A stretch of 64,000 bases of DNA from Trichormus sp. ATA11-4-KO1 (GTDB taxonomy: Bacteria > Cyanobacteriota > Cyanobacteriia > Cyanobacteriales > Nostocaceae). A program made the position numbers and the translations under genes. Under the pieces are notes generated by a model that saw nothing but the letters and a program-made list of their open reading frames with translations, searched no databases and was not told the origin of the DNA. The number at the start of each line of letters is the position of its first letter. Position 1 is the first letter of the stretch. The DNA is taken from contig JAHHIM010000004.1 in NCBI GenBank assembly GCA_019358915.1, positions 1 to 64,000 of the forward strand. Reading direction: 5' to 3'. This document shows, piece by piece, positions 14,695 to 41,735 of this stretch.

Positions 14695-16191
14695 ATGAAA
14701 ACTCCGTTAACTTGCCGCAATTATATCGACGGTCAATGGTTGAATGCCTCAGAGGGAAGTATTCTGGAAAGCCGCAACCCCGCTTTAGTAGATGAAGTTG
14801 TTGCCACTTTCCCCCGTTCTCAAGCTAATGATATAGATCCAGCAGTAACCGCCGCTCGTCAAGCTTACCGCAGTTGGCGAAAAGTGCCTGCCCCAGCTAG
14901 AGCAGAATACGTGTTTCGGGTGGGGGAAATATTACTCCAGCACAAAGAAGAACTGGCCCAATTAATCAGTCAGGAAATGGGTAAACCCTTGACAGAAGCA
15001 AGGGGAGATGTGCAAGAAGGCATTGATTGTGCTTTTTACAGTGCTGGTGAAGGAAGGCGGCTATTTGGGCAAACTACACCTTCGGAAATGCCCAATAAAT
15101 TTGCTATGACGGTACGAATGCCTATAGGAGTCTGTGCTTTAATTACTCCTTGGAATTTCCCGGTAGCAATTCCTTGTTGGAAAGCTATGCCGGCTTTAGT
15201 ATGTGGTAATACGGTCATCCTCAAACCTGCTGAAGATACCCCCGCTTGTGCAACTAAATTAATAGAAATTTTTGCCGCCGCAGGTTTTCCAGATGGAGTG
15301 ATTAACTTGGTGCATGGGTTGGGTGAAGAAGCAGGGAAAGCTTTAGTTGAACATCCCCATATTGATTTAGTTTCCTTTACTGGGTCTTCGGAAACTGGTG
15401 CTTTTGTCGGTGCTACTTGCGGCCGCACTCACAAGCGTGTCTGTTTGGAGATGGGTGGCAAAAATGCCCAAGTAGTGATGGAAGATGCAGACTTGGAACT
15501 AGCCCTTGATGGTGCAGTTTGGGGTGCTTTTGGTACGACTGGTCAACGGTGTACAGCCACTAGTCGCCTGATTTTACATCGTGACATCAAAGAGAAATTT
15601 ACGGCGATGCTGCGTGAACGTACTAGTAAGTTACGCTTGGGTGCTGGTACTGACCCTGACACAGAAGTCGGGCCAATAATCAACGAAAAGCAACTGCAAC
15701 GAGTCAGCCAGTATATGGATATTGCTCGTGAGGAAGGAGCAAAGGTGTTAATTGGTGGGGAAATTGCCAACGCAGGCTCATTAAAAAACGGTTACTTTTT
15801 TGAGCCAACTATTTTAGATAATGTTACTCCCAATATGCGCGTTGCCCGTGAGGAGATATTTGGCCCAGTGGTGGTATTAATTGAGGTGACTGATTTTGAG
15901 GAAGCGATCGCTATTCTTAATGATACCAATTACGGCCTTTCCTCTTCAGTTTATACCCGCGATATCAATCGAGCTTTTACTGCCATGCGCGACATCGAAG
16001 CAGGTATCACTTATATTAATGGCCCTACTATTGGTGCTGAGGTACACTTGCCCTTCGGTGGTGTTAAACAAACTGGTAACGGACACCGGGAAGCTGGAAC
16101 TACTGCTTTGGATGTGTTCACAGAATGGAAGAGTGTTTATGTTGACTTTTCTGGCAGTTTGCAACGCGCTCAGATAGATAATCGGGGATGA
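14695..16191 (+). CDS. NAD(P)-dependent aldehyde dehydrogenase
   Basis: PWNFP, FTGS, LEMGGKN, GQRC, EEIFGP, PFGG. Confidence 0.95.
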
Positions 16192-16333
16192 GTGGGGAGT
16201 GGGGAACAAGAGATAAAATAAAGAAACTACACTAACTTCATCTGTAGTTATTTTTTCGGTTTATTTTGAATTTTGAATTGATTCATACGGTTGTTTGCCA
16301 GAATAACATCCAAATGAAAAGGGACGGTGTGAT

Positions 16334-16699
16334 ATGACAATTACCCTAGATCATACTATAGTGCCTGCACACGATAAGGAAGCATCAGCACGCTTTTTTG
16401 CCCAAATTTTTGGCTTAAAAGTTGATACTTCTGTTGGGCACTTTGCTGCTGTGCATGTCAATGATACGTTGACACTTGACTTTGCTGATAGAGAAAATTT
16501 TGACTCTCACCATTATGCTTTCCATGTCAGTGATGAGGAATATGATGCTATCTTCGCACGGATTAAAGACATGGGTCGGGAATACAGTAGTGACCCCATG
16601 CATCAGAACAAAGGACAAATTAACCATAGGATGGGAGGCCGTGGTTTCTATTTCTATGACCTGGATGGTCATAATTTAGAATTATTAACCCGTACTTAA
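16334..16699 (+). CDS. VOC/glyoxalase family protein
   Basis: LDHTIV, HYAFHV, YFYDLDGHNLE. Confidence 0.88.
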   Translation: MTITLDHTIVPAHDKEASARFFAQIFGLKVDTSVGHFAAVHVNDTLTLDFADRENFDSHHYAFHVSDEEYDAIFARIKDMGREYSSDPMHQNKGQINHRMGGRGFYFYDLDGHNLELLTRT

Positions 16700-16740
16700 T
16701 TCGTAATTCGTTTGTGGGCTGTGTTTTAACTCAATACGCA

Positions 16741-18072
16741 TCACTTTTTCACAAGAAAATAGGCTGTAGCATACTCAGGTAATTGCCTGATATGCTGCCT
16801 AAATTCTTGCTGATTACGAAAAGTCCCAGCCAAATAATCAAGTTGATAAAGATTAGGTAAAAAAGCTCCGCCTGTATCTCCTATAACTCCCATTTGTAAG
16901 TGTTTACGTCCGTTTTTAGTATGTTCAATTGCCACCACTCTACCTAAACCAATATTTAAAACATCTCCGGCAAAAGTTACTCCTGGTTTGATGGAAATTT
17001 TGGCATCTATGTTATGTCCATAACCTTTAATAGCATCGACTTGTCTAAAGTACCAATATCGCTTTTGTGCTGTTGCTTTTAATCCCCGCACGTAAGAAAT
17101 GCCGTTATTTCTATCTACATTAAAAAATGCCTGGGAGCCATCTGTAAAATTAATCAGTATTGTTCCCTGCATCAGTGCTTCTTCTAAGCCATTGCGGGTG
17201 AGATAAGCTAGGGGTTGAACTCTACCATGTTCCTTCCCACCTGGTTCATAAATACCCGATAAAACATCTTGTTTTGTATATCTAGTATAAAACTTATCAG
17301 CAATATTATCTGCTTTTAAACTGTAAATAGGGGTGTTAAAAGTAGAGGTTTTTGTGCGAGAACCGGGATGAGTAAAAACAGCGTATTTTGTAATTCGTAA
17401 TTGATGCTGCTTTTGGTTGCTAGAATTATAAGCAGACCATTTGATTACTCGAAAATGGGTGTTAATAAAATTAGTATTTTGTAACCGAGTAGCTCGATTG
17501 TTGGCAATATCCTCCCTTAAAACTGTAATCATGAAATCCAAGGTTTTGAGGATATCTTGTACAGTAACTCCTTGAGTACCTAGCAGCCCTTTACGGAGAA
17601 TATTGGGGTCTTCTGAAGAATAATCTTGAAAATATTTTCTAGTATTTATAAGAACGCTTAATAAGTCTGAGTGATTAAAGTTAAGCTTAGTATTTGGCAG
17701 TTTTGCTGAAGTTAAAATTTGACTACCGTTAACATTGAACTTGTATTTCTGCCACTCGTCAATGACTGGATAAGTTACAGGTATTGAGGCTACAGATTGC
17801 CTAGAGTTAGGTGATATTTGTTGAGTAATAAAAGAAGTCTGGAAAATCGGGAAAAATCTTTGAGCAAATTGAGGATAAGCCGAAGCCAGCTGTGTTTGTG
17901 TTAGGGCAGAATTTTCCTGCTGAGTAAATGATAAATTTTTTTCAGCCTGGTTTTTTGGTACTTGCTGTTGATTTTTGGTATGAGTATACAAACGGCTACT
18001 GGCTAAACTCACAAATAACAAAGCAGCAAAACCTAATGTGAAGCGGAGTTTTTGGCTGAATAGGGTACGCAT
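16741..18072 (-). CDS. Exported MltA/3D-domain-like protein (putative lytic transglycosylase)
   Basis: Signal-like N-terminus; QGT...NNG.SY, RYWYF and C-terminal GDTGGAF...QLDYLAG resemble the MltA/3D motif. Confidence 0.6.
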   Translation of the reverse strand: MRTLFSQKLRFTLGFAALLFVSLASSRLYTHTKNQQQVPKNQAEKNLSFTQQENSALTQTQLASAYPQFAQRFFPIFQTSFITQQISPNSRQSVASIPVTYPVIDEWQKYKFNVNGSQILTSAKLPNTKLNFNHSDLLSVLINTRKYFQDYSSEDPNILRKGLLGTQGVTVQDILKTLDFMITVLREDIANNRATRLQNTNFINTHFRVIKWSAYNSSNQKQHQLRITKYAVFTHPGSRTKTSTFNTPIYSLKADNIADKFYTRYTKQDVLSGIYEPGGKEHGRVQPLAYLTRNGLEEALMQGTILINFTDGSQAFFNVDRNNGISYVRGLKATAQKRYWYFRQVDAIKGYGHNIDAKISIKPGVTFAGDVLNIGLGRVVAIEHTKNGRKHLQMGVIGDTGGAFLPNLYQLDYLAGTFRNQQEFRQHIRQLPEYATAYFLVKK

Positions 18073-18416
18073 AAGTTGAAAAATTACTACTCATTTATTA
18101 ATAATAGTTGCATTTGCCCCAATATTTGCTGAATTTTAACTTGACAATGAACTACCCATAGATACAATTGGGGCATCATACCTCTTTTAGGTTTAAAGAG
18201 CAACTACTTTGTGAGGGCGGGGAAAAAGCTACGAAGTTTTTTCTGGAAATCTTTCTTAAGATTCATGAAAGATTGTCTAAATTTTTTCAAGATCACTGAC
18301 ACATATTCTAGTTTTTCTGTCAATGCGTAAATTTTATACAAATGGCATCAAATACTACTGTCATAAATCGCACTTCGCAGTTTAATTATCAATAATTCTC
18401 AAGAAATTTTCAAAAA

Positions 18417-19739
18417 ATGTTAAGTATACCAATTAACCGACCTTTACCTAGTGAGCCTCGCTTGGTAACTTCCTTGCCTGGATCTCGGGCTAAAGCAATT
18501 ATAGAACGCGATCGCGCCGTAACTTCCCCTTCCTACACCCGCGATTATCCCCTAGTGGTAGCTCGCGGTGAAGGCTGTATGGTGGAAGATGTAGATGGTA
18601 ACGTATTTCTAGATATGACGGCTGGTATTGCTGTTACCGCTACCGGACACGCTCACCCGCAAGTCGTCGGGGCAATACAAGAACAATCAGCGCTTCTGTT
18701 GCATATGTCGGGGACTGATTTTTATTATGAGCCGATGGTGGAACTAGCGGAACAATTAGCTGTACGCGCCCCTTTTCCTAAACCTCAAAATGGTAAAACT
18801 TCGTTACCAGCAAAAGTATTTTTCACCAATTCCGGGGCAGAATCCAACGAAGGAGCTATTAAACTAGCTCGATATTACACCAAGCGATCGCTAATTGTAG
18901 CCTTCCTGGGAGCATTCCACGGACGCACCTATGGGGCAATGTCTTTAACTGGTTCCAAAACAGTACAACGCGCACACTTTGGCCCTTTAGTTCCAGGGGT
19001 AACTCATATTCCCTACGGTACTCACGCTAGCTTGGATCATTTAGAACAACAGCTATTTGCGACAATCCTCCCACCCCAAGAAGTAGCAGCAATTGTGGTG
19101 GAACCAATTCAAGGAGAGGGAGGTTACATCGTCCCTGAAGATGGTTTCTTACAAAGAATTCGGGAAATATGCGATCGCTATGGCATTCTGATGGTAGTTG
19201 ATGAAGTCCAATCCGGCATGGGGCGTACTGGTCGTTTGTTTGCCATCGAGCATTGGCATGTCATGCCTGATATCATTACTACTGCCAAAGGTATCGCCAG
19301 TGGAATGCCTTTAGGGGCCATTCTCTCACGACCTGAGTTAATGACTTGGCCTCCTGGTTCCCACGCCACCACATTCGGCGGAAATCCTGTAGCTTGTGCT
19401 GCTGGTATTGCTACTCTCCAACTACTGGAAAGTGGCTTAATGGCCAACGCTACCCAAATGGGAGAAGTATTACAAGCTGCTCTTACCCAGTTACATGAAA
19501 GATTTCCCAAAATTTCCCCACCACGCGGCAAAGGTTTGATGGTAGCAGTGGATTTATCCGATAAAGAGGGCAATCTTGATCATAAATTGCGCGATCGCAT
19601 TATTCAAGAAGCTTTCTTGCGCGGACTGTTATTACTTGGTTGCGGTAAAGCTGCAATTCGTTTTTGTCCACCTTTAGTTATCAACAAAGACCAAATTCAT
19701 ATTGCCTTAGATATTCTCGCAAATATTTTCAACAGCTAA
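18417..19739 (+). CDS. Class III PLP aminotransferase (ArgD/GabT/lysine aminotransferase superfamily)
   Basis: FHGRT, EPIQGEGG, DEVQSGMGRTG, AKG, TTFGGNP. Confidence 0.93.
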   Translation: MLSIPINRPLPSEPRLVTSLPGSRAKAIIERDRAVTSPSYTRDYPLVVARGEGCMVEDVDGNVFLDMTAGIAVTATGHAHPQVVGAIQEQSALLLHMSGTDFYYEPMVELAEQLAVRAPFPKPQNGKTSLPAKVFFTNSGAESNEGAIKLARYYTKRSLIVAFLGAFHGRTYGAMSLTGSKTVQRAHFGPLVPGVTHIPYGTHASLDHLEQQLFATILPPQEVAAIVVEPIQGEGGYIVPEDGFLQRIREICDRYGILMVVDEVQSGMGRTGRLFAIEHWHVMPDIITTAKGIASGMPLGAILSRPELMTWPPGSHATTFGGNPVACAAGIATLQLLESGLMANATQMGEVLQAALTQLHERFPKISPPRGKGLMVAVDLSDKEGNLDHKLRDRIIQEAFLRGLLLLGCGKAAIRFCPPLVINKDQIHIALDILANIFNS

Positions 19740-19804
19740 TTATCATCCTCCTTTGTGTACTTTGCGGTTTGTCAAAATAATTATTCTCATATCAAAAATC
19801 ATTT

Positions 19805-20698
19805 ATGAACCCCGAAATTGCCCTTCATTTATACTCATTACTTTGGCAAGAGTACACCGCCAGAGTTAGTTATGCCCGCACATACCAACAAATGATTACC
19901 TCTGCGGGTGGAACTGTTGCCAACGACCATATCGCCTTTCGGTCTTTGCGTCTATTTGTCGATAGCCCCCAAGGTCAAATTAACTTGGGTATTGACTACC
20001 TAGGTCAACTAGCTGAAGCCTTGGGTTACGTGATAGGTGGAGAATACAATTTTGTAGACACTCATCTTTACGCCCGTTACTATCATCATCCTCAGCAAGC
20101 AGAATTCAACTTACCCAAGTTATTTATTAGTGAGTTAGTTGTAAATGAATTGCCTGCTAATATTACCCAACTAATTCAGCAAACAGTAGTTAATGCAACA
20201 TCAAATCTGCTAAATCCTTTCTCTACCAGCATCAAAGAATTATCTGCCCCACAACTCCAAAAAATCTTTACTCGCCCTTGGCAACCCCCCCGGCGTTCAG
20301 TTGTAGAAGCAGTTAATCAAGTAAGTCAATATGGTGCTTGGGTGCTATTGCATGGTTACGCTGTGAATCACTTTACAGGTTATGTTAACCACCAAAACAC
20401 AGATGCATACCCAGATATAGATACCACAGCCCGTGGTTTAGCTAATTTAGGTGTACCCATGAAACCAGAAATAGAAGGTAATATTACTTGTGGTTTGCGT
20501 CAAACAGCAACTCAAGCAGTCACAGAGATGGTAACAGTACTAGATGATGCCAGTAATACAGAAATCCAAATTCCCTGGACTTATGCCTATTATGAAATTG
20601 CCCAGCGCTACATGGTAGAAGCAGATGGAAAGCCAGCGCTTTTTGATGCTTTCTTAGGAAAGAATGCCCAACAATTATTTGAAATGACTCGACGGTAA
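19805..20698 (+). CDS. DUF1338 protein (HglS/YdcJ-like 2-oxoadipate dioxygenase/decarboxylase family)
   Basis: NDHIAFRS, PKLFISEL, SQYGAW...NHFT, LRQTA, YYE metal-ligand pattern. Confidence 0.8.
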   Translation: MNPEIALHLYSLLWQEYTARVSYARTYQQMITSAGGTVANDHIAFRSLRLFVDSPQGQINLGIDYLGQLAEALGYVIGGEYNFVDTHLYARYYHHPQQAEFNLPKLFISELVVNELPANITQLIQQTVVNATSNLLNPFSTSIKELSAPQLQKIFTRPWQPPRRSVVEAVNQVSQYGAWVLLHGYAVNHFTGYVNHQNTDAYPDIDTTARGLANLGVPMKPEIEGNITCGLRQTATQAVTEMVTVLDDASNTEIQIPWTYAYYEIAQRYMVEADGKPALFDAFLGKNAQQLFEMTRR

Positions 20699-20888: not shown

Positions 20889-22781
20889 CTATGCAGATTT
20901 AAATTCTGTTTTTTCTACCTTGGCTTTAAGAGAAGCAAAATGCTTTCCACCTAACTCTATTTGCCCCTCGGCACATCCGGCTTTTAATCTTTCCACAAGA
21001 TACTCTAAATCATGAGCTATAAAATTTGTACCATGATCTGGCTCTATTAGACCAACCAATGAAACATTTTTCGTCGGTTGATTTGCCAAGCTAGAAATAC
21101 CCAAAAAATTGAATACCCCAGATTCATAAGTACCACAAGGGACTGAAGGGTTGTGAACTCCAACACAATATTCGTTCGGTTTAAACCAATCAAATGCTGG
21201 GTAGCCATGAAAATGAACAATTGGCGCACCATCTTTAATTAATTCTGGTGCATACAAAGCAGCTGCAAGACTAATAGCCAGCATCACATAGATATCATAA
21301 GAAGGTTTGATATCTCCTAAATCTGTATGAATATCCTGAGGTAATTCAAGATATAGCTTTTCTTTCAAACCGATTCTAATGACATCCCTAGCAATATTCA
21401 AGTCAGTCTTATTTGCTCCTGAACGAGAACTAACGAGCCAAATATCAGGGATTTGCTTAAATACATCCTCTCCTTTGATCTGAGTTTTCAGATAACGTCG
21501 ACCTTGTTCATTTTGACGTAGTTCGTTACTGCTAAATCTTGCAACAGCAGACAAGCTTTCCCATTCATGAGCCGTAATTTCTGGCGCACCAAAATATTGT
21601 GGAGGTTCAGCATAAGCTACAAAGCCATAAGAAACACCTGTTCTCCCATTTACGATGACATTGACAATATCTCTGTGAGACTTCCTTTTAATGACTTCAC
21701 TAAGTTTAAACCCAGGAGGAAATAGACCTGTTGATGCCAATTCTTGACCCAATTTCACCAACTTCTTAGCATAGCTAGATTTTTCTGGTTGATACTGCCC
21801 TAATTCAAATCTGTTCAATAAAAGTGGAGCAATTGGCACAAAAATTTTCGGAATTAGTGATTTTAGAACAAATTCTCCTAGTTCTTTTTTGGCAAAAATA
21901 GAGTCTGAAAGATTCATATTTAAAATAGAAATCTTATCAGGAGCAACTCCAATTACAATTTCCGAAAAAGTTCTAACTAGAGTATTCAACCCAATATTTA
22001 TCTTTTGCGTATATGGTGTTTCAGGATTAATGAAATCATGATCTATTTCAGTTAAAACTATTACCTGAGTATTAGTAGGATCTTGGATATATTTGGCTGC
22101 ATGGTCTTCAGCCCAACTACTAAGTCTGGCTATTTTCAAAACTGACATTTTTTGAGTTTTCAATATAAAATTGGAATAATATTTATACCAATTTTCGGCT
22201 AGAAAAATTCCTATTTTTTTGATACAAGAAGGAGGAATCTCTATATTAATAACAGCATTAATTTCGGACATAACTCCCATAAGGTAAAAAGTTTTTTTCC
22301 GGTTAATTATAGGTAATGAAATGTCATACCGAAACTCTGTAATTGCATCATTCCAAGGAATGATGTTGACACCATATTCCCTCATCTGATTTTCTAATTC
22401 TTGGCGGAATTTCAATATTTCTTGATTTTTATAGCTCTTAGGTACAGGTTTAAATGTAACTGTTAACTTTTGAGCCATCATTTTAGGGTCAATGACAGGG
22501 GGCTTATATTCCTTACTTTTTTGACCACAAAATCCTCCAATTAAACATCCAATAGTTTGTAGATTTAGCCCCTGACTCAGAGGTAAAAATGTAGGAACTT
22601 GAGTTTCAGTAATATTCATTTCGCGAATAAAAGATAGAATTTCTGTTTTGTAAGCCATGAGATTTGCCTGAACTTCTGGTGTAATAATTCCCTTGGGAGA
22701 ATGAATATTGAGTTTGTCATTATCAACCCAAAAATTAACACCTTGTTCCATGAGGTTGGTCACGATTTCTGATGCGTTCAT
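20889..22781 (-). CDS. TubC-type N-terminal docking domain fused to an unknown region and a class II aldolase-like C-terminal domain
   Basis: N-terminal GVNFWVDNDKLNIHSPKGIIT...YKTEIL; C-terminal SRSGANK, KPSYD, HFHG, PCGT, DHG. Confidence 0.65.
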   Translation of the reverse strand: MNASEIVTNLMEQGVNFWVDNDKLNIHSPKGIITPEVQANLMAYKTEILSFIREMNITETQVPTFLPLSQGLNLQTIGCLIGGFCGQKSKEYKPPVIDPKMMAQKLTVTFKPVPKSYKNQEILKFRQELENQMREYGVNIIPWNDAITEFRYDISLPIINRKKTFYLMGVMSEINAVINIEIPPSCIKKIGIFLAENWYKYYSNFILKTQKMSVLKIARLSSWAEDHAAKYIQDPTNTQVIVLTEIDHDFINPETPYTQKINIGLNTLVRTFSEIVIGVAPDKISILNMNLSDSIFAKKELGEFVLKSLIPKIFVPIAPLLLNRFELGQYQPEKSSYAKKLVKLGQELASTGLFPPGFKLSEVIKRKSHRDIVNVIVNGRTGVSYGFVAYAEPPQYFGAPEITAHEWESLSAVARFSSNELRQNEQGRRYLKTQIKGEDVFKQIPDIWLVSSRSGANKTDLNIARDVIRIGLKEKLYLELPQDIHTDLGDIKPSYDIYVMLAISLAAALYAPELIKDGAPIVHFHGYPAFDWFKPNEYCVGVHNPSVPCGTYESGVFNFLGISSLANQPTKNVSLVGLIEPDHGTNFIAHDLEYLVERLKAGCAEGQIELGGKHFASLKAKVEKTEFKSA

Positions 22782-22974: not shown

Positions 22975-23280
22975 TTAAATCTGAAATACCTCTGAATCTG
23001 AAGTTTCCAATTCTTCAACTAAACGCTTAGCTAGTAATGCAATGGTGGGATAATGCCACAGCAGCATAGGAGATAGCTTAAATCCCAGCAATTTCTCGGC
23101 TTTATTTGCTAGTAAAATAGCTTGTACTGAATCCAGTCCGTAGCTATCTAAAGGTTCTTTAACATCTATTTCATCGGGTTCAACACTCAACTGTTCAGCA
23201 ATGCAAGAGACTAGCCAAGCTTGAATTTCTTCTACGGTATAAGACTGATTAATGCTTGAATTGGGCATAGATTGATTCAT
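22975..23280 (-). CDS. Free-standing acyl carrier protein
   Basis: YGLDSV phosphopantetheine site, YPTI..LA; acidic tail ETSDSEVFQI. Confidence 0.92.
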   Translation of the reverse strand: MNQSMPNSSINQSYTVEEIQAWLVSCIAEQLSVEPDEIDVKEPLDSYGLDSVQAILLANKAEKLLGFKLSPMLLWHYPTIALLAKRLVEELETSDSEVFQI

Positions 23281-23438: not shown

Positions 23439-24788
23439 TTAAATATTTGTTAATTTCCTCTGAATTTTTAACTTACAAAGTTGATAAATTTGGTGCATAA
23501 AATTGTTTACAAGTTCTTCCATCGTATCGCGACTAATTGAAGGCTCAGAAAACACGAAGTTTAACAACATTTTTCCTTGAAAAGTTGAGGCATGGGTAAT
23601 AAACATACCTGCGTACAAAGCATGAGAGCCAACAAAACTGATTTCTTCTAGTGCAAATTCACCGTAAACGCTGGGAATATTGACTTTGCCGACATTAGAT
23701 ACAGATACTGTTGCAGTTACTTGCTGATGGTAAGTTAAATAAAAATTTATGAGATGTTTAGCAACTAAAATCATCTTAAATATATCACCATGTTTGATAC
23801 TAACTTCAACTCTTTGTTTCACCTCTCGTGCTAATTCCCAGAACGATTTATTTATTTGTATGCTATGAAATCCTACAATAGATGAACTCAGTACAGCCAT
23901 ATGCTCATTACTAATTTTCGGTTCTAAATGTCTCCGCAAATCAATATAAGATAGGCAGTTTACTCTAATATTTTTTTTATTATCTTTAGCTATTTCGCTT
24001 GCTACTGTAAACATCATGGCCGCACATAAAGCACTATTGACAGTTGTATTTTCCTGCCGACAACAATTAACGAATTGTTGGGTTAGCTCTTCGTTAAGTT
24101 GCTTATGAATAATATCGCAACTACGCTGTGCAATAGGTTTATACTTTTCAAAACCTAATGTTTTTGGTCGATTCCAGATTTTTTGCAACCCAAGTTGTAA
24201 CAAAAATAATGTGCTAACTATCTTACCTTTCAACCCTTTTGTCCATATAGGTAGTAGTTCCTCTACAGGTGGTAATGGAAGTAAACTAGTAACTGGGTTA
24301 ATGAGGTCACCAGAAACAATTTGCTGACAGTAAGTCAAGATTTCTGCATGAAGTTGGATGGATGATAACCCATCGCCTACGGCATGGTGTCCCGTGGTAA
24401 TCAGGTAATTTACACGGCTGTTACTCTGGAGATGAACCAGAACCGCTCGCATTAAACATTTACTACTATCAATTTCCTGATTCATCTCTTCACGAACGAC
24501 TTCTTGCCACTGCTCATCATCCGACTTTTTTACAACACGCAAAGCAATCTTTGCTGTTCTTTCAGTTTGAAAACCGAGACTATTTCCAGAACGAACAATC
24601 CGAGAATTAAGTCGCGGATGACGACGTTGAATCATGTCTAGAGCCGGTCTAAGAATATCTGCATTGAGGGGTCCTTTGATACGGCTAATAGTTACTATAT
24701 TCCAGGTTTTAGCACGCCTATTTAAGGTTTCCATCACCTGCTCAATACATCCCAGGTTTCTGTTATTAATCATATTTTCCTTCTCCAA
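23439..24788 (-). CDS. Stand-alone condensation-domain / PapA-like acyltransferase
   Basis: RHPRL, HHAVGDG (HHxxxDG), DLRR, SNVG. Confidence 0.88.
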   Translation of the reverse strand: MEKENMINNRNLGCIEQVMETLNRRAKTWNIVTISRIKGPLNADILRPALDMIQRRHPRLNSRIVRSGNSLGFQTERTAKIALRVVKKSDDEQWQEVVREEMNQEIDSSKCLMRAVLVHLQSNSRVNYLITTGHHAVGDGLSSIQLHAEILTYCQQIVSGDLINPVTSLLPLPPVEELLPIWTKGLKGKIVSTLFLLQLGLQKIWNRPKTLGFEKYKPIAQRSCDIIHKQLNEELTQQFVNCCRQENTTVNSALCAAMMFTVASEIAKDNKKNIRVNCLSYIDLRRHLEPKISNEHMAVLSSSIVGFHSIQINKSFWELAREVKQRVEVSIKHGDIFKMILVAKHLINFYLTYHQQVTATVSVSNVGKVNIPSVYGEFALEEISFVGSHALYAGMFITHASTFQGKMLLNFVFSEPSISRDTMEELVNNFMHQIYQLCKLKIQRKLTNI

Positions 24789-24895: not shown

Positions 24896-26563
24896 TTAAA
24901 AATTCTTAGAAATCACTGGATGATATTGATGATAAAAATCGGGAAATTGTAAGCCTTGAATTTTCAAGCTTTGTAATCGATATAGAAATGCTGCCCCTGT
25001 CATAATATGATGTGCGACATCAACTACTTTACGATTATTTAAGTCTGCTAAATAGGAACCTTTGATCCAGTTATTGAAGCTGCCCATTGCGGGACCACAC
25101 CAAATTTGATAATCAATTTCCCGACCTTTTTCACCAGAGTTAGACCAACGAGAAGATAATCCAAGATACCAGCGAAAAATTAGCGCCATTTTCAACTTGG
25201 GATTTTTGGCTGCTTGGTTTAATTTATCGGGATTACGTTGAGATAGGTAATTAACTGTTTCCTGCCAAACCGCTTCTAGTCCAGTTCTGAAAACTTGTTT
25301 TTCTAGTTTCTCTCTTTCTGCAACAGGAATGTCTTCAATTGAATCATAGTTTTTGTATAACTCAAACAATTTTTGTGCCCGTAGCGGAAAAAGAGTTCCT
25401 CTTTTAAGAACTTGCAATTTTACTCCCATTTCAAACATATCTGCGGCTGGAGCCATCATCACATCAGCCATCTCTGCTTGAGCCAGTAATTCTTTAGTAT
25501 GTTGTGAAGTTCCAGCCTCAATACAGGATTGGTTAATAGAGCCAGTCACAACATAAGCAGCGCCCATCATAAAAGCACCTAAAGCTGATTGTGGAGTGGC
25601 AATTCCTCCGGCAACTCCAATTCTAACTGGTGTTGCGTAACTATATTTGCTTTGAATTTGGTCTCGTAATTCCAGAATGGATGGCAACAGACAAATCAGA
25701 GGACGATTATCTGTGTGACCACCAGAATCTGCTTCCACAGTAATATCATCAGCCATAGGAATTTTCTCGGCTAAAGTTGCCTGTGATTCACTGATGAGTC
25801 CTTGTTCTACTAATTGTTTCAGAATTTTAGTGGGAGCAGGTTGTAAAAATTTTGTGGCAACTTCTCTTCTAGAAACTTTGGCAATGACTTTATTTTTGAT
25901 TTCGATTTGATTGCCTGAATTCAAATTTAGCCCAGCAGCTCGGTAATAAACAATGTTGTCAGTCAAATCCAAGAAGGCAGATGCTTCTATTGTTCTAACT
26001 TGATACTTAAGATATAAGTCAACAACACCGCGTTCAACAGCAGGTTCACTAGGATTGTGGAGTAAGTTAAAAGCATAAGGGCCTTGAGGTAGGGCTTGCT
26101 GAATACGGTTAATGGCTGCTGCAACACGGGAAGGAGATAAACCCCCAGCACCAAATGAACTCAAAATTTTCTCTTTTCCGAGAGCAATTACTAGTTCTTC
26201 AGAAGCAATACCATGAGCCATTGCACCAGTGGTATAGGCATATTTCACGTTATGAAAATCTAGGAAATTGGGGTCACCTAGCTGTTGTATTTTCATAGAT
26301 GGAACTGCTATAAGCAGTTCCATCTGTCCTATTTTGCCATTATTAACATGAATCCAATGGCCTTCTTGGGTGACACCAATATGTCCTTGATATCTGATAA
26401 TATAGCAAGGTTTACTTAAGTTATTTAACTTGGCTTTAATACCCTCTTCATCAAAAGATACAGTATCTAAATCACCTTGCCAAACCTGATAAGGCATAAC
26501 ACAAAAATCTGATATTTTTAGGCGATTAGTATGTTGATTATTCAGAATATTATTTGTGATCAT
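24896..26563 (-). CDS. pfaD: PfaD/HglA-type FMN enoyl reductase
   Basis: GAMAHGIAS, EADSGGHTDNRP, MAPAADMFEMG, DYQIWCGPAMG. Confidence 0.93.
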   Translation of the reverse strand: MITNNILNNQHTNRLKISDFCVMPYQVWQGDLDTVSFDEEGIKAKLNNLSKPCYIIRYQGHIGVTQEGHWIHVNNGKIGQMELLIAVPSMKIQQLGDPNFLDFHNVKYAYTTGAMAHGIASEELVIALGKEKILSSFGAGGLSPSRVAAAINRIQQALPQGPYAFNLLHNPSEPAVERGVVDLYLKYQVRTIEASAFLDLTDNIVYYRAAGLNLNSGNQIEIKNKVIAKVSRREVATKFLQPAPTKILKQLVEQGLISESQATLAEKIPMADDITVEADSGGHTDNRPLICLLPSILELRDQIQSKYSYATPVRIGVAGGIATPQSALGAFMMGAAYVVTGSINQSCIEAGTSQHTKELLAQAEMADVMMAPAADMFEMGVKLQVLKRGTLFPLRAQKLFELYKNYDSIEDIPVAEREKLEKQVFRTGLEAVWQETVNYLSQRNPDKLNQAAKNPKLKMALIFRWYLGLSSRWSNSGEKGREIDYQIWCGPAMGSFNNWIKGSYLADLNNRKVVDVAHHIMTGAAFLYRLQSLKIQGLQFPDFYHQYHPVISKNF

Positions 26564-26613: not shown

Positions 26614-29600
26614 TTAATTACACTCATCAGTTAAGTTATTTGCCTCATCAAATAATTTGTGGTACAACGCTAGCTGTTGCTGAATTATGGCGCTGATTTG
26701 ATATAGTGATTCTTGTCGTGCCTGCAATAAAACACCGTGAGCTTTAGTCATTCGGGAAACATTCTCATTCAGTTTTTGATAGTAAAGACTACGTAAATTA
26801 GGTAGCTGATATTCGGGAGCAAAGCTGTCATCTTGCTCATCAGCAGATAATACGTCTGGATAACTTTCTTGCTCTGTAATTGAAATATTATCTGGTGATT
26901 TTTCTTGAGGTGTATTAATGCGATCGCGCAGCATAACTGTAGAAGATTTATGATGATCATTCAGACAAATATTTTCTGGTGAATTTTCGGTGATTAAGTT
27001 ACTCATAAAATCTTTTGCTTCACTTGTAATTAGGTTTTGACTTACAGAATATATTGGTTCTTCAAATTCACTAAATTCAAGTAGCTCATACTGCTGATTA
27101 ACTAATGAATTGGTAAATATATCTTGGTGAATTGCCGATTTTTGTTCATGCACAAATATATCATTACTTTTGTTACCACCTAAAGTGATAGTTTTCAGTA
27201 ATACTTGACTCTGCCCAGAACTTTCAGGCAAAGAAGCATACAGAGGCGATAAATCTATCTCAACTCGATGACTTAAAAGCTTCGCAAAAGCTCTGATAAT
27301 AGAAGTATGATCTTCTACGCCTCTTCTATTTAGAGATATGGCGACATGTTCTTTGTCTTGGAGAACTTTACTAATCCATCGTGAACAATTACTGCCAACA
27401 CCTACTTCGATAAATATTCTGAAGCCATCGTTGTAGACACGGTTTACTAACTGAGGAAAATTAAGTTCTTGGCAAAGAGTTTGGGCAATATTGTGACCAA
27501 TAGAATAACTGTCGAGGGTAATAGGTTGATATTCTGCTGCGGAATAAAAAATAGTTTCTGGCAGGTTTTGAATAGGTAAGGTGTTGATTTTAGCGAGTTC
27601 ATCATACTCAGAGCGCATTGGTTCACAATGAATTACATGATTGATGGGGGTATGGTAAGCATGACAGTTGAGAGTCTCAATCACTCGCTGACAAGCTTGT
27701 GTGTCACCAGCAATTACAACTTCTTCAGGCGTATTGATCAGAGTTATATAGACGCGCTTTTCTTGTTTGATAGCTTCCCTAATCTGGGAAAGTGGACACA
27801 AGAGAACATAGTTACTCCAAAACTTTTCATCTTGGTCATCCGGCTTGGCTGGTAATTTCCAATACTCACGCACGGCGTGTTTAGGTCCAGACAGTCGTGT
27901 TTTAAACAAAGGTGATGAATTTAAGCCTTCACTGCTGTGCTTAAAACCAGTCCAGACTCCCTGAGCAAACATCATACTAATTTCGCCCAGACTATATCCA
28001 AAAGCACAATTGGGTTTTACTTGAAAGTAATCTCTGAGAATTGCAGTCATGAATCCGGCAATACCCACTTCAGCTTCGAGCATTGTTAATGGATCATTAA
28101 TCAATTGCTGTTCTAATACTTCTAGTTGCTTTGTGGAGAGTTTTTTCAAGCTTCTAGGATAGAGAAGTTTCTCAATATTAGCAACACGGGTGTAAACACT
28201 CTTAATTACTAAGTCATCATAAATTTGCGGAAACAAGCGGAAAAGATTTCGCGCTATGCCAATATAAGAATTGAAAGAACCAGGGTAAACGAAGGCAACA
28301 TTATTTTGTTTACCTAGTGGTTTAGCTGTGAAATAGCTACCTACTGGCGTTTGCCAGTCTTTACCTGTTTTAAAAGCAACATTCACACCTGGGATAGCGC
28401 GCTGAATTTCCCGTGTTAATTCATCTTGATTGCGTCCGAGAATAGCTAGTGCGTAAGTTGCCTTTTGACGCTTTTGAAAAGCTGTAAAAGTTTGATTGGC
28501 AGCAACAGCCAGAGAAGGGCAATCAATGATAGTTTGTTGTAGAGCCTGAATCTGCTCTAATAAACTAGAGCGATCATCAGCTGCGATCGCAAATAGATAA
28601 TAAGGAATTTGCTGTAGATAGTTGTTGCCATAACGTTTCTGACCTGATTCCTCTGACAAAATTAAATGTGCATAACTCCCATCTACCTCCATACCGTTAA
28701 TAGCAGCAATTCTTTTAGTGGCTCCTGGTTCTAAAAACCAAGGTTTTGATTCACCGATGACGTAAAAGGGACTATCCTGCCAAATCTCTGGCATTTTGGG
28801 ACTAGACCACTGGGGAACACCGGGTAGATAGCGATGATATAGACAGAGTGCTGTTTTAATTAAACTAACCAACCCCGATACCGCATAGGTATGACCGATA
28901 TTAGCTTTGGCACTGCCAATAGCACAACTGAGATTTGGTTCATGAGTTCGGTAAGCCTGGAGCAAACCCTGAATTTCTGACTCATCTTGTGATTGAATAC
29001 CACTACCAATAACTTCTAAATAGTTAACATCTGTTGGTTTGATATCTGCCAACACAAACGCCTGTTGACAAGCTTGCGTTACCGTTTCCGCGTTGAGGGC
29101 GGTAGGAATTGAGTAAATTTGAGATTTGGGATTTTCTACAAGACTCAGGGCTTCAATTACTGCATAGATGCGACTGTTATCTTGTTTTGCTGTTTCGTGG
29201 AGCTTCAAAACCACAGCACCTGCACCCTCACCTATCATCCAGCCATTGACATTTTGGTCATAACTGAGAGTATTCACACCTGTGTTGATGGCTGACTTTT
29301 GATTTCGCAGTAAAACACTTGCACTATCTCCAGCTAGTTCAACTGCACCAACCAAAACAGCATCGACTTCTTTGATAGCAAGTAGCTTTTGTGCCAGATC
29401 CAAAGCTTTGAAAACAGAATTTTGTTCAGCAGTTAGTGTTAATGTCAGTCCAGCGAAATTCCACAATCTAGAAACATAATTAGCTAGTCTGTTTTCAATA
29501 TTTGGGTAATCAAATTGCGTACTTCCCTGAAATGTAGGAAAAGTAAGTTCTGTAGCACTAACAATGACCACTGCAATTCTTGACCCTGGATGAAGACCCG

Positions 29601-29940
29601 CATCTTGCAAAGCATTATCAGCCACCTGAAGCATCAAAAGTTCTTGAGGATTAAATTTGTCCACTACCTCTGGTGGAATTTGTAATCGTAAAGCATCAAT
29701 TGTAAATTCTTTGATATATGCTCCTAATGGTGATTTACCACTGGTAAAACCATATTGAGTAAGTAAATGCTCTTGTTTTTCTATTCCTTGCCATCGCTGC
29801 TCAGGCAGAGAAATAAAGTGTTGAGTTCCTTCATAAATACTATTTTCAAAACTAGCTAATCCGTTACAGTCACCACCTAAATAGCAATCCATACCTACAA
29901 TCGCTATTTTTGGTACTTTATTTTCTGGGTTCTTTTCCAT
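26614..29940 (-). CDS. HglC/PfaB-like protein: inactive KS (chain length factor) plus AT
   Basis: KS fold with TAEQNS (no Cys) and EVIGSG (no HGTG); AT with GYSLG. Confidence 0.85.
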   Translation of the reverse strand: MEKNPENKVPKIAIVGMDCYLGGDCNGLASFENSIYEGTQHFISLPEQRWQGIEKQEHLLTQYGFTSGKSPLGAYIKEFTIDALRLQIPPEVVDKFNPQELLMLQVADNALQDAGLHPGSRIAVVIVSATELTFPTFQGSTQFDYPNIENRLANYVSRLWNFAGLTLTLTAEQNSVFKALDLAQKLLAIKEVDAVLVGAVELAGDSASVLLRNQKSAINTGVNTLSYDQNVNGWMIGEGAGAVVLKLHETAKQDNSRIYAVIEALSLVENPKSQIYSIPTALNAETVTQACQQAFVLADIKPTDVNYLEVIGSGIQSQDESEIQGLLQAYRTHEPNLSCAIGSAKANIGHTYAVSGLVSLIKTALCLYHRYLPGVPQWSSPKMPEIWQDSPFYVIGESKPWFLEPGATKRIAAINGMEVDGSYAHLILSEESGQKRYGNNYLQQIPYYLFAIAADDRSSLLEQIQALQQTIIDCPSLAVAANQTFTAFQKRQKATYALAILGRNQDELTREIQRAIPGVNVAFKTGKDWQTPVGSYFTAKPLGKQNNVAFVYPGSFNSYIGIARNLFRLFPQIYDDLVIKSVYTRVANIEKLLYPRSLKKLSTKQLEVLEQQLINDPLTMLEAEVGIAGFMTAILRDYFQVKPNCAFGYSLGEISMMFAQGVWTGFKHSSEGLNSSPLFKTRLSGPKHAVREYWKLPAKPDDQDEKFWSNYVLLCPLSQIREAIKQEKRVYITLINTPEEVVIAGDTQACQRVIETLNCHAYHTPINHVIHCEPMRSEYDELAKINTLPIQNLPETIFYSAAEYQPITLDSYSIGHNIAQTLCQELNFPQLVNRVYNDGFRIFIEVGVGSNCSRWISKVLQDKEHVAISLNRRGVEDHTSIIRAFAKLLSHRVEIDLSPLYASLPESSGQSQVLLKTITLGGNKSNDIFVHEQKSAIHQDIFTNSLVNQQYELLEFSEFEEPIYSVSQNLITSEAKDFMSNLITENSPENICLNDHHKSSTVMLRDRINTPQEKSPDNISITEQESYPDVLSADEQDDSFAPEYQLPNLRSLYYQKLNENVSRMTKAHGVLLQARQESLYQISAIIQQQLALYHKLFDEANNLTDECN

Positions 29941-29986: not shown

Positions 29987-32900
29987 TTAAATCTCTCCTA
30001 CTTGCTTGTGCAAAATAATTCCTCTAGCTCCGAGCATTTGTGAATATACTTTTCCTTGCTGATCATGGATGATGAAGTCTGCAATCACACTACTTACTGT
30101 TTTTGCTTTTATTTCACAAGAAACGTAAAAAGGTTGATTATGTGGAGTCGGGGCAAACTGTTCATATTTATCTAGTTTGCCGGGTAAACAACCTTCTTGA
30201 TAAAAATGCTGCATCCAAATCCACAATGCATGCATGTTCAAGTCAGTCATGTAAGGATTTACCCATTGAACAGGAAATTGTCCTTGTTCTTTTTCGCTAA
30301 GTTTTTGCCACAAACATTCTGTGGTAATTTTTTCAGGCGTAATATTTAAGACTTGTTTAACTGACTGGAATGAAGCTCCATGAAATAATGAGGTTCCTCC
30401 ATTTTGATAGAAATCTTTGCCTGTGATGGTAATAACATGGTCTGGAGTTAGATTGATTGCTTCATAAATAGGCGCAGGAGGAATTGTTCGCAGCAGATTA
30501 AGTTGAGTACTAAAATGGTAATGAATTTTTCCTGCTGGATTTTTACTCCAAATTTTAGCTTTTATTTCTACTTGCTCCGATTTAGTTTTAGCGACTTCTT
30601 CGATTTCTAAAACATATTCTTTAGCTAAGTTTTCATTAAAGGTAATACCCTTCAAAATCTTGAAATCTGTGTAACTAAATAATCGATAACCTGGATACAT
30701 TTGTTCGCAGGAATTGATGATCCATGTAATGGCACAAGTAGCTGGCAATACTGGTAAACCAGCGATTTTATGATCATATAAAAATGGATTGGCTTCTAGT
30801 GTAATTTGGCGACGGAGGTGATAAGTTCGCAGTTCAGAATCCAATTCTGTAGGTAGTGGAACCAATGGACTACCAATCACAACTTGTGTAGTATGTTTAT
30901 GGGCTGGATGCAGTTCATTGACTAGCATCTGTGCCCCAATTTCCAGGGGAATTGTCTCGATATTGCGTTCAGCAAAAGCTTTTTTTAATTCTGGAGATAC
31001 CATCCCACTATCCCAAGGGCCCCAATTAATTGCTACTACATGACAATGAGGATGATTGAGTTTGAAGAGATGGGCTGATTTGTTGAGAATTTCGTTAGCG
31101 ATCGCATAATCTGACTGTCCCACATTTCCGTAGAAACCAGCCACAGAGGAAAATAGAACTAAACATTGCAGTTGGCTGGGTGGTACACATTGCAGCAGGT
31201 TTTCTAAGCCTTTAACTTTAGCAGCGTAAACCGTTTCAAAATCTTTGACTGATTTTCTCTCAATCCGCTTATCAGCTAGATTCCCCGCTCCGTGAATAAT
31301 GCCTGTAATTGCGCCTAAACGCTCAACTGCACTAGCAACTTGCTCAACCAGCGTCATCGTATCGGTGACATCCACACTCAAGTATTCGGCTTGTCCACCC
31401 GCCTGCTCAATAGCTTGTAAGGTAGCAGCAATTTCCCGCCTAGATGCAATAGCCTGAAACTTTTTCTGCACCATTGCAGGTGTGGGCTTGTCTCCTTTAG
31501 CGACAAAATCCTCCATAATTCGCTTTTTCAATTCCGCTTCACCAACATAGCCTTCAGCCCACACAGGCTCTGGCTCGGCGGCGGAACGACCTAGGAGAAT
31601 AAATTTGCATTGATAACGCTGTGCTAGTTTAATCACACACTCAGCCGTTATCCCTTTTGCACCACCACTAACAAGAAATACTTGGGATTGGGGATGGGGG
31701 ATTGAGGATTGAAAACTAAAAATTTCCCCTAATTCTGGTTCACATACTAACGTTGTGCGTCCTTGTGAACTGTATCCCACTTCCACAACTAATTTATTAG
31801 GGTCGTGAAGTTCAGCGAGGATATGCTGTACCGAGGTTTGAGCATCTAAATCGGGACTGAGGTCAAGCGCTCGACAAAATACGGGTTCCCATTCCTGGTT
31901 TAAAGTTTTAGTGAGTCCGAACAGTCCACTACTAATGGTACCAAAGTTAGTTTTTTGTCCTAATCCGAATTCGCCATCAAGACGAGCCACTGTGAGAAAA
32001 CAACTACGTCCTTGATTAGCTGCTTGATTCAGGGACTCTTTGAGATATTTAGCGAGCAGAAAGACGTGGCGCAAAATAGCTTTTTCGCTTTCTAGAAAGC
32101 AGACACCATGACTTGTCTCTTCGATGCTGGGAGGATTCAGGTGGATAAAGGCGGCGATCGCCCCATATTCAGTCGCGATCGCGGCTAACTGTTGTTGCAA
32201 ATGCTCCTCGCTCAAATCTGCCAACACCACACGATTGATGTCTCCCGGTAAAGGTGACTGTTGACCAATCAAGCTTGGGGGAAAACTCAAAACCACGATT
32301 TTCCAGCCGCACTTAATTAAAGTTTCCGCTAATTTCGTGGTGGTGAGGGTACCATCATCGGTCAGCAAGGCAATATGCTGTGCAGGTAAGGTGAAATCTA
32401 AAATATCGGGTTCAGGAAGAAACTTGAGTCTGATAAGACTGCGGCGAATTAAGGATTGGGGGAGAGGAAAATCCTCCCCCTGCTCTTGTTTGGTTTCAGG
32501 TGGCTGATTTTGTAGAGACGTTACTTGTGGTGTCTCTATGAATAGCATTTTTTTTTCTGCCACTTCCGTTTGCTGTTGAATGTACTCAACTATTTGTCCC
32601 AGGGTACGCTGTTGAGCCAGTTCCTCAGGATTCGGCTGGGGTAAGTTGGGATAGATTTCTAATAATGCTCCCAAAATCTCCACACGTTTAATGGAATCAA
32701 TCCCCAAATCAGCTTCAATATCCATCGACAGCTCTAACATTTCGCTGGGGTAGCCTGTTTTATCACTGACAACGGAGAGCAAAGTTTGACTGAGGTTGCT
32801 CAAATCAATGGAGCGAACTGGAGAAGATGTAGACGCGATCGCGGCTGACTCTGGGGTGGGAGATGTTGAGCTTTCTTCTTCCTGGTCTTCTTCTAATACT

Positions 32901-39147: not shown

Positions 39148-40377
39148 ATGACCAAAAAAGTGTTGAGTAATAAAAAGAGTATGGTACCCAAACAAAGGCA
39201 GTCATTCACAAAACCTGTAAATCCAGGGTCAATAATTTTGGCAATTAGTATAGCTGTAGCCACTGGTACAGTTTCTTTTTACAGCTTTTTACGATTTCGT
39301 TCAACTTCTAATTTGGAGCCTCCAACTGCTACACCAAGCAGTTCTCCTGCGATTAATGCTGTTGCGGCTTTAGGACGTTTAGAGCCTCAAGGCGAAGTTA
39401 TTCGTTTGTCTGCGGCCAATTCCCAAACGGGCGTTCGGGTGGCAAAACTTTTGGTTAACAAAGGCGACTGGGTATCTCAAGGACAAGTGGTGGCAATTCT
39501 TGACAATTACTATACTCGGCTTGCAGCCTTAGAAAAAGCTCAAAAACAAGTTTTAGTGGCTCAAGCTAATCTCAATCAGGTAAAAGCGGGAGCAAAAGCC
39601 GGAGATATTTCGGCACAACAAGCGACAATTGCTCGTTTAGAAGCTGAGTTACGGGGAGAAATTTCCGCACAACAAGCGACAATTGCTCGTTTAGAAGCTG
39701 AGTTGCAAAATGCTAACAGCGAAAATCGTCGATATCAACAGTTGTACAGAGAAGGTGCTATTTCAGCTTCTGAGTCAGAAGCTAGGCTTTTGCGAGTTGA
39801 TACTGTGCGACAGCAGCTCAATGAAGCCAAAGCTGCTCTTAATCGTACAGTAGAAACTCTGCAAAAGCAGTTAAACGAGGCTGAAGCTAGACTCAATAGT
39901 ATTGCTGAGGTTCGGCCTACCGATATACAAGCAGCACAAACTGACATTGAAAGTGCGATCGCCTCAGTCAAACAAGCTCAGGCTGACTGGGATTTGAGTT
40001 CTGTGCGATCGCCTATAGATGGTCAAGTACTCAAAATTAATACTCGTCCAGGAGAACTTATTGGCAATACAGGAATAGCTGACTTAGGACGCACACAACA
40101 AATGTACGTAGTTGCAGAAGTTTATGAAACTGATATTCAAAATGTGCGTCTGGGTCAGTCAGCGATTATTACTAGCAATGCTTTTTCTGGAGAATTACGC
40201 GGAAAAGTTACAGATATTGGTTTGCAGGTTAATAGACAAAATATCTTTGATAATAATCCACAAGCCAATACAGATAACAAAGTAGTTGATGTCAAAATCC
40301 GTATCGATCAACCAGCAGATAACCCACAAATTACCACTCTGACTGATTTACAGGTGCAGGTACTCATTAATATATAA
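39148..40377 (+). CDS. devB: DevB-family membrane fusion protein
   Basis: ALGRLEPQGE, coiled coil, SPIDGQVL, AEVYETDI; a paralog rather than necessarily the devB ortholog. Confidence 0.9.
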   Translation: MTKKVLSNKKSMVPKQRQSFTKPVNPGSIILAISIAVATGTVSFYSFLRFRSTSNLEPPTATPSSSPAINAVAALGRLEPQGEVIRLSAANSQTGVRVAKLLVNKGDWVSQGQVVAILDNYYTRLAALEKAQKQVLVAQANLNQVKAGAKAGDISAQQATIARLEAELRGEISAQQATIARLEAELQNANSENRRYQQLYREGAISASESEARLLRVDTVRQQLNEAKAALNRTVETLQKQLNEAEARLNSIAEVRPTDIQAAQTDIESAIASVKQAQADWDLSSVRSPIDGQVLKINTRPGELIGNTGIADLGRTQQMYVVAEVYETDIQNVRLGQSAIITSNAFSGELRGKVTDIGLQVNRQNIFDNNPQANTDNKVVDVKIRIDQPADNPQITTLTDLQVQVLINI

Positions 40378-40531
40378 ACTCTCAAAGAGCTAGTTGAAAT
40401 TTAAACGCAAAGATACGCAAAGAATTCGGTACGAATTAATGAAATGTGTACTTAGCATTTTTTCAAGTTTATTTACGCCACTTCTTAGCTGTTACTTATC
40501 ACCTGTCACCTATTCCCTATGAGGTTACTAA

Positions 40532-41704: not shown

Positions 41705-41735
41705 TCGTTAACAAGGAACATTGGTTTATTTCAAT

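Follow-up and report, generated by a model that had tools for sequence, protein, structure and literature searches.

An NglG-family protein closing an hgl-like polyketide island of Trichormus sp. ATA11-4-KO1: a candidate chain-release enzyme acting on an acyl carrier protein

Trichormus sp. ATA11-4-KO1 is a cyanobacterium of the family Nostocaceae. In this study, the first 64,000 nucleotides of contig JAHHIM010000004.1 (GenBank assembly GCA_019358915.1), hereafter the window, were analyzed around a minus-strand open reading frame (ORF) at 20889-22781, which encodes the 630-residue NglG-family protein P0001. As the original prediction for this DNA had held, the gene lies at the end of a polyketide synthase (PKS) operon; it closes a co-directional run with gaps of 46-193 bases. 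Upstream on the same strand, the run comprises a PfaA/HglE-type iterative PKS (29987-37072), a ketosynthase (KS)-acyltransferase (AT) protein (26614-29940), a PfaD/HglA-type enoyl reductase (24896-26563; TIGR02814 over the cut-off), a PapA5-like acyltransferase (23439-24788; HHxxxDG at residues 134-140, below the NCBIfam cut-off), and a stand-alone acyl carrier protein (ACP) of 101 residues (22975-23280) with a docking-type tail at 22978-22995. The PKS has the domain order KS-AT-ACP-ACP-ketoreductase-dehydratase, without a thioesterase or reductive release domain. The KS-AT protein is PfaB/C-like; its KS is without the Cys motif and is likely a chain-length factor. Three divergent plus-strand genes for a DevB-DevC-DevA type ABC exporter (39148-42521; TIGR02971, TIGR01185, and TIGR02982 over the cut-off) complete the locus.

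Homologs of hgdCB and hglEAFGCA were found here in five ORFs, the gene names being assigned from domain content, and the locus is second to a canonical hgl island in the same genome. The P0001 gene thus closes an island that fits the hgl-like kind (Perez Gallego et al., 2025; PMC11804610). In the available text of that paper, such islands of heterocytous cyanobacteria carry devB, devC, PKS, KS-AT, and PfaD homologs in five ORFs, stand as a second island beside the canonical one, and have an open product; no discussion of the ACP, the PapA5-like gene, or the P0001 gene was found in the available main text. In the canonical island (contig C29), PfaD is followed by an ACP fused to a thioester reductase; in the hgl-like island, the lone ACP and the P0001 gene occupy this slot. 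The lone ACP shares 60% identity with the ACP portion of this genome's HglB-like protein, whereas the fold of HglB/HetM is not related to that of P0001. HglB releases its chain by reduction and leaves the chain length unchanged.

Cyanobacterial locus counts refer to the 80 best GTDB loci, some of which end early. Homologs of the ACP (78/80), PfaD (74/80), the KS-AT protein (70/80), and the PapA5-like protein (68/80) were found within 10 kb of the gene. Queries with the HglB reductase and the NglR thioesterase had no match in the window and matched 4 of the 80 related loci. The gene was present in 45 of 91 genomes sampled from the family: in 33 of the 39 genomes with at least two PfaD matches and in 12 of the 52 with one or none, a comparison between related genomes, which are not independent. 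A single RNA run gave only fragments of the PapA5-like gene and was not counted as expression evidence. In 23 loci (L005-L023, L032, L055, L073, and L075), a 432-residue protein without a Pfam family and a 2Fe-2S ferredoxin are encoded between PfaD and the ACP.

Five sequence motifs had been named in the original prediction. All were found in the last 270 codons of the ORF, in the order given and at most one base from the places given: VSSRSGANKTDL (residues 450-461, 21399-21434, minus strand), KPSYD (492-496, 21294-21308), IVHFHG (521-526, 21204-21221), PCGT (548-551, 21129-21140), and EPDHG (580-584, 21030-21044). The spaced motif pattern was absent from 20,000 shuffles and occurred once among 4,147 genome frames, figures that overstate its significance since the pattern was fitted post hoc to P0001 and misses FucA, AraD, and RhaD.

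Relatives were collected by a word-indexed search, in which 7,996 candidates were scored and 578 relatives were retained; the best 120 of these were all at least 64% identical and were cyanobacterial where named. A search with residues 70-630 against 1.84 billion representatives returned 131 matches. Sixty-six of them (400-700 residues, most 25-45% identical) were aligned with the query in 67 rows. H523 was kept in 64 rows, H525 and H583 in 63 each, D496 in 65, C549 in 64, E580 in 63, and R380 in 63-65; the non-conserving rows are mostly two truncated, one degenerate, and one probably spurious sequence. The original prediction had staked its reading on the conservation of the three His, which was found. 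H523, H525, D496, and C549 were also invariant in all 80 cyanobacterial loci and in all 80 distant metagenome loci, whereas the conservation of R380, G386, F387, and partly of E580 and H583 counts less there, as these residues were in the locus retrieval patterns. One gene copy (G314:C2:4046382-4048060) was spread over two frames and is possibly frameshifted.

P0001 is predicted to begin with a beta-hairpin docking domain, followed by a CoaB-like domain in the middle and a class II aldolase-fold domain; the first two were absent from the original prediction. The AlphaFold2 model, built from a 111-sequence input, had a pLDDT of 92.5 and a pTM of 0.89. All 15 Foldseek matches of the model at E ≤ 0.001 were class II aldolases or epimerases. 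With VIA-align, residues 331-628 matched rhamnulose-1-phosphate aldolase (Z 14.0, root-mean-square deviation (rmsd) 3.6 Å, 191 residues), and FucA, AraD, YgbL, NovR, POD, TqaM, and adducin scored Z 10-14. The model thus agrees with the class II aldolase fold that had been put forward, and it moves the start of the domain from residue ~370 to near residue 330 (residues ~330-630, 20892-21794). The likeness to the class II aldolase/adducin superfamily (RhaD, FucA, AraD, YgbL/OtnC, NovR, POD, and TqaM; PF00596) covers the predicted fold, the HxH...H spacing, an S/T-G loop, and a P-S-x-D/E motif. P0001 differs from the superfamily in its long insertions, its extra invariant Cys, Glu, and Arg, and its two extra domains, at 10-18% identity. 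No PF00596 match was obtained for P0001 at the Pfam gathering score, and one faint match (E 0.2) was obtained among 65 relatives. Beyond the docking domain, Pfam, NCBIfam, the PDB (sequence and profile), and the ESM Atlas gave nothing credible for P0001. A flavodoxin match to residues 545-622 (E 1e-4 to 4e-4) was rejected, as the model puts this stretch in the aldolase fold.

The middle domain (residues ~100-319, 21825-22484) was folded alone with a pLDDT of 80 and carries the conserved residues M289, N290, P311, K312, and P319. Its predicted fold resembles CoaB/phosphopantothenoylcysteine synthetase. The top six of 48,161 chains were CoaB-type, with moderate Z scores of 8.6-10.3 that are only slightly over those of generic Rossmann-like folds (Z ≤ 8.5), an rmsd of 3.6-4.4, and 7-10% identity. 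Foldseek gave no match for this domain at E ≤ 0.001, the best CoaB-type match having an E of 0.009. CoaB is the best structural neighbor, and it may be speculated that the domain binds pantetheine or a nucleotide.

The predicted active site was read by alignment to FucA and AraD. Its register rests on a profile alignment against the E. coli FucA, AraD, and RhaD families with a probability of ≤4% and E of 0.01-0.07 (controls, E 0.7-0.8). In this register, S454-G455-x-x-K458 (21408-21422) aligns with FucA T43-G44, and D496 (21294-21296) with FucA E73 and AraD D76. The predicted metal ligands H523-x-H525 (21207-21215) and H583, the last residue of E580-P-x-H583 (21033-21044), align with FucA H92/H94/H155 and AraD H95/H97/H171. 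The ordered HxH...H is therefore in register with known class II aldolases, as proposed, and from fold and register the three His probably cluster and bind a divalent metal. Asp does stand in place of the catalytic Glu, as the original prediction had noted, but this is not special, since AraD has Asp as well (PSSD, 73-76). The family-specific, near-invariant C549 (21135-21137) lies by eye opposite FucA F131 (CGTYE versus FGTRE) and is a candidate acyl-accepting residue. In FucA, E73 is the catalytic residue, and an Asn, a Thr, and two Ser form the phosphate pocket. Ser454 and Ser494 of this pocket are kept in P0001, Tyr495 replaces Ser72, and, by eye, Phe387 replaces Asn29; Tyr or Phe stands at the FucA S72 position. 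P0001 carries neither the catalytic Glu nor the complete pocket of FucA/RhaD-type dihydroxyacetone phosphate aldolases.

Adducin has the same fold (Z 10.8) and no activity is known for the family, which could mean that the aldolase domain is a non-catalytic scaffold and P0001 an adaptor between the ACP and tailoring enzymes. The near-invariance of the His, Asp, Cys, and Glu residues at ~25% overall identity argues otherwise, and we regard a scaffold as extremely improbable.

The substrate had been proposed to be an ACP-bound chain, and the docking domain and matching ACP tails support this proposal at the sequence level. Residues 5-54 (22620-22769) form a TubC_N beta-hairpin docking domain (PF18563, E 1.6e-14), which resembles the AerJ domain 8aqq (Z 8.9, rmsd 1.6). 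All 77 short ACPs in the 80 loci end in S-E-x-[FIL]-[EQ]-[IL] or a close variant, with Glu or Asp at position -5 in 77/77 and a terminal Ile or Leu in 74/77. The locus thus pairs an N-terminal beta-hairpin domain with an acidic-hydrophobic carrier tail, the sequence features of a SLiM/beta-hairpin docking pair. The unrelated KS-ACP proteins that precede a homolog in three of three modular clusters carry the same tail; the three starter ACPs of these clusters are without it. Tails of this kind bind beta-hairpin domains, according to the available part of PMC9113145. The beta-hairpin domain of P0001 probably binds the ACP tail, and the carrier tails are the strongest independent indication that a carrier protein delivers the substrate.

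The closest described protein is NglG (Npun_F3362) of the ngl/pks3 cluster (Glasser et al., 2024; PMC10849952). In the available text of that paper, NglG has a docking and a putative aldolase domain, is proposed to terminate synthesis by C-C cleavage after sugar addition, taking the chain from C20 to C21 (Supplementary Note 3, Table 10), and has several hundred homologs in clusters without release domains; the nostochlorosides have a C21 chain with a 1,2-diol made from palmitate (C16 starter) and two extensions. The central idea is hence already in print for NglG, as a proposal, and no later test of NglG was found in the literature. The original prediction had called the activity one not known from pfa/hgl clusters. 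It has been published for NglG of a modular PKS cluster; it was not found stated for hgl-like islands, and the words TubC and aldolase are absent from the main text of PMC8406957.

The NglG counterpart of genome G419 (L169:3243-5102) is 58% identical to P0001 over 620 residues (E 0.0), with the same domain order and TubC_N in both. The genes of its ngl cluster are ordered as published, and the third KS carries Gln344. P0001, like the NglG family, directly follows the terminal carrier of a PKS cluster without a release domain. The two settings differ: an iterative PfaA-type synthase with a lone ACP precedes P0001, whereas a modular PKS precedes NglG, and the reductase, halogenase, and glycosyltransferase of the ngl cluster are missing from the P0001 island. 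G419 itself has one ngl-type copy (59%) and one copy (76%) adjoining ACP and PapA5-like genes. In trees of 34 and 21 chosen rows, P0001 grouped with hgl-like copies, apart from ngl-type copies; support was uneven (99 for the split in the quick tree; in the careful one, the ngl group had 93/65). Plasmid searches returned two cyanobacterial records only. Two plasmid-borne modular clusters (L161:4736-25334 and L162:7775-31551) have a fatty acyl-AMP ligase (FAAL), an ACP, a PKS, a non-extending KS-ACP, an NglG-like protein, and a reductase; the clusters end in a sulfotransferase or glycosyltransferases and likely make new nostochloroside-type lipids.

P0001 is probably the enzyme that releases the ACP-bound chain of the hgl-like island. 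That it does so with the full one-carbon-adding chemistry is a tentative proposal, to which we give a little under even confidence. We infer the following course. The PfaA-type synthase would hand a long acyl chain to the lone ACP, whose tail would be gripped by the beta-hairpin domain of P0001. The chain would shift, perhaps via C549, to the predicted three-His metal site, where a metal-bound enediolate from a ketose or ketose phosphate would attack the thioester. C-C cleavage would then yield R-CO-CH2OH, a 1-hydroxy-2-ketone longer by one hydroxymethyl carbon. An NAD(P)H reductase encoded outside this island could convert it to a 1,2-diol, the PapA5-like enzyme could esterify the diol, and DevBCA could export the ester. 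By hand count, an NAD(P)-dependent reductase gene directly follows 24 of the 55 gene copies in the 45 genomes (16 NglH-like, 8 extended short-chain dehydrogenase/reductase (SDR)). The original prediction is thus borne out in part: the fold, the His residues, and the ACP-bound substrate are supported, and the novelty of the Asp and the newness of the idea are not.

The same odd-chain product could be reached with loss of carbon. A three-His site with Fe(II) and O2 could cleave or hydroxylate a 3-oxoacyl-ACP to the same odd-chain hydroxy-ketone or an oxo-aldehyde, with CO2 lost; the fold includes the non-heme iron oxygenases NovR, POD, and TqaM (Z 10-12), the ngl-type cluster has two SDRs, and by arithmetic the nostochloroside oxygens would end up at identical positions if a third extension were made and C1 then lost. 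In all three modular clusters, however, Gln replaces the HGT His of the final KS, and the AT of this KS is either absent or spans only ~105 of 319 model positions. A KS without this His likely passes on an unextended chain, and a 3-oxo chain would thus not be expected. The residues are also conserved in a protein named for Prosthecochloris, a strict anaerobe, and an oxygenase is quite unlikely. Release by hydrolysis and metal-assisted decarboxylation of a 3-oxoacyl or 2-hydroxy-3-oxoacyl chain, to a methyl or hydroxymethyl ketone, fares slightly worse and is very unlikely. Decarboxylases (YgbL and 2z7b) have the same fold, one family member is fused to a thioesterase, and the iterative PfaA-type synthase could supply 3-oxo chains. 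Against this, the final KS of the modular clusters is non-extending, the 1,2-diol is not accounted for by a methyl ketone, and hydroxymalonyl-supply genes were not noted among the annotated neighbors of the representatives scanned.

In a further alternative, P0001 would make or tailor the acceptor or head group, as a sugar-phosphate aldolase or epimerase or by acyl transfer onto a triose, and the PapA5-like enzyme, HglB, or a type III synthase would unload the ACP. The nearest folds are sugar-phosphate aldolases and epimerases, the Asp is as in AraD, other exits are present in some loci, and some relatives are PKS-free, the Chlorobi-like ones lying beside an NAD kinase and a DAHP/KdsA-family synthase. 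This alternative leaves unexplained the docking domain and the matching tails on two unrelated carrier types. Among the 17 ORFs scanned in the G419 ngl-type cluster, neither an acyltransferase nor a reductive release protein was found, and the published ngl product nonetheless has an extra C-C-bonded carbon, according to the available text of PMC10849952. We therefore consider a purely tailoring role unlikely, though less so than the oxygenase.

Several observations weigh against release with an added carbon. The PapA5-like enzyme could itself unload the ACP. An HglB-type reductase is retained beside the gene in 3 of the 80 loci, one of them that of Gloeocapsopsis crepidinum, for which the available text of PMC11804610 reports even-chain C24 1,3-diols and names no odd-chain 1,2-diols. 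Other possible exits are an extra type-III-like synthase pair in 9 of the 80 loci and a thioesterase fused to representative P0134. The island is without its own reductase or glycosyltransferase, and at E ≤ 1e-70 nothing NglH-like was matched in the genome. In the profile-profile comparison, the similarity to aldolases is weak, and the donor is uncertain because aromatic residues take up part of the phosphate pocket. His27 in the docking strand of P0001 is Arg in all 80 homologous loci; the NglG counterpart of G419 also has His there. As the trees set it apart, P0001 is an NglG paralog and may differ in function; even for NglG itself, an odd-chain 1,2-diol product is a hypothesis. No PKS lies near the gene in the Chlorobi-like and other distant loci, and no measured activity, metal, or product was found for any family member. 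No glycolipid is tied to hgl-like islands in the available text of PMC11804610. The nine loci with the type-III-like pair, which we take to be DarA/DarB, are L021, L027, L028, L030, L031, L034, L037, L040, and L055; some have beta-propeller and halogenase genes.

The family extends well beyond cyanobacteria. Relatives of P0001 are encoded in 451 stretches of GTDB species genomes, and the named distant members are from Pseudomonas, Woesearchaeota, Thermoplasmatales, Balneolaceae, Rhodothermales, Prosthecochloris, and Patescibacteria. The Pfam docking domain was found in only 5 of the 65 representatives scanned. An SDR gene lies directly upstream in 12 of the 80 distant loci; its products have a median identity of only 32-36% to NglH-like proteins and are not counted as orthologs. 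Among the genes scanned in the 80 metagenome loci, no acyltransferase recurred as a neighbor. The family might make glycerol-free alkane-1,2-diol lipids as a general acyl-plus-one-carbon synthase, whose CoaB-like domain would bind or activate the acyl donor and whose aldolase domain would add the sugar-derived hydroxymethyl carbon. Cyanobacteria would have added the docking domain, so that hgl-like islands export hidden odd-chain diol esters, and stand-alone forms would serve envelope lipids in Chlorobi, Balneolaceae, Rhodothermales, Patescibacteria, and some archaea. This wider reading, taken as a whole, is quite improbable. The 1,2-diol producers Thermomicrobium, Roseiflexus, Thermus, and Nitrolancea (PMC3504966) were not among the named matches (the best 120 or ten clusters, in which most rows are nameless).

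In the Chlorobi-like relatives (35 loci within L109-L160), the gene keeps a constant position behind those for prephenate dehydrogenase and NAD kinase, and this row faces genes for a DAHP/KdsA-family synthase and a probable KdsC. P0177 and its relatives form a large Patescibacteria branch, with 12 named rows among the best 120 matches; Patescibacteria are said to lack fatty-acid synthesis.

If the proposed chemistry is correct, polyketides would be released here by C-C bond formation to a carbon derived from sugar, carried out by a small soluble enzyme that could be assayed with the 101-residue ACP. The link to NglG gives a concrete search target, namely odd-chain 1,2-diols or hydroxy-ketones and their esters, which screens for even-chain heterocyst glycolipids could miss. 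To the published proposal, the present analysis adds support from the predicted structure, a CoaB-like domain, the tails of the carriers, the exchange for the HglB reductase, and a wide distribution outside PKS loci.

The window also holds, at 14695-20698, genes for an aldehyde dehydrogenase, a glyoxalase-like protein, a class III aminotransferase, and a 2-oxoadipate dioxygenase/decarboxylase (HGLS). They look like a lysine-degradation group, and none of three tested recurs next to the P0001 homolog in the 80 related loci. A 443-residue minus-strand ORF at 16741-18072 has no Pfam or NCBIfam family over the threshold. In the whole genome (G000), no PF00596 match over the cut-off was found, whereas one is present in 104 of the 121 genomes sampled across the phylum; a methionine-salvage dehydratase may be absent or may lie in unassembled DNA. 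The two halves of the canonical hgl island seem to lie at two contig ends (C33:39067-48425 and C29:3087-19891). The C33 locus, with an exporter, an extended SDR, and glycosyltransferases, was considered as a detached half of the hgl-like island and rejected. Its SDR is assigned to the canonical island because 88 of 91 genomes carry it and, in close relatives, ~19 kb separate it from the canonical PfaD. Close paralogs of this extended SDR (59-84%) lie beside NglG-like genes in 29 of the 80 loci.

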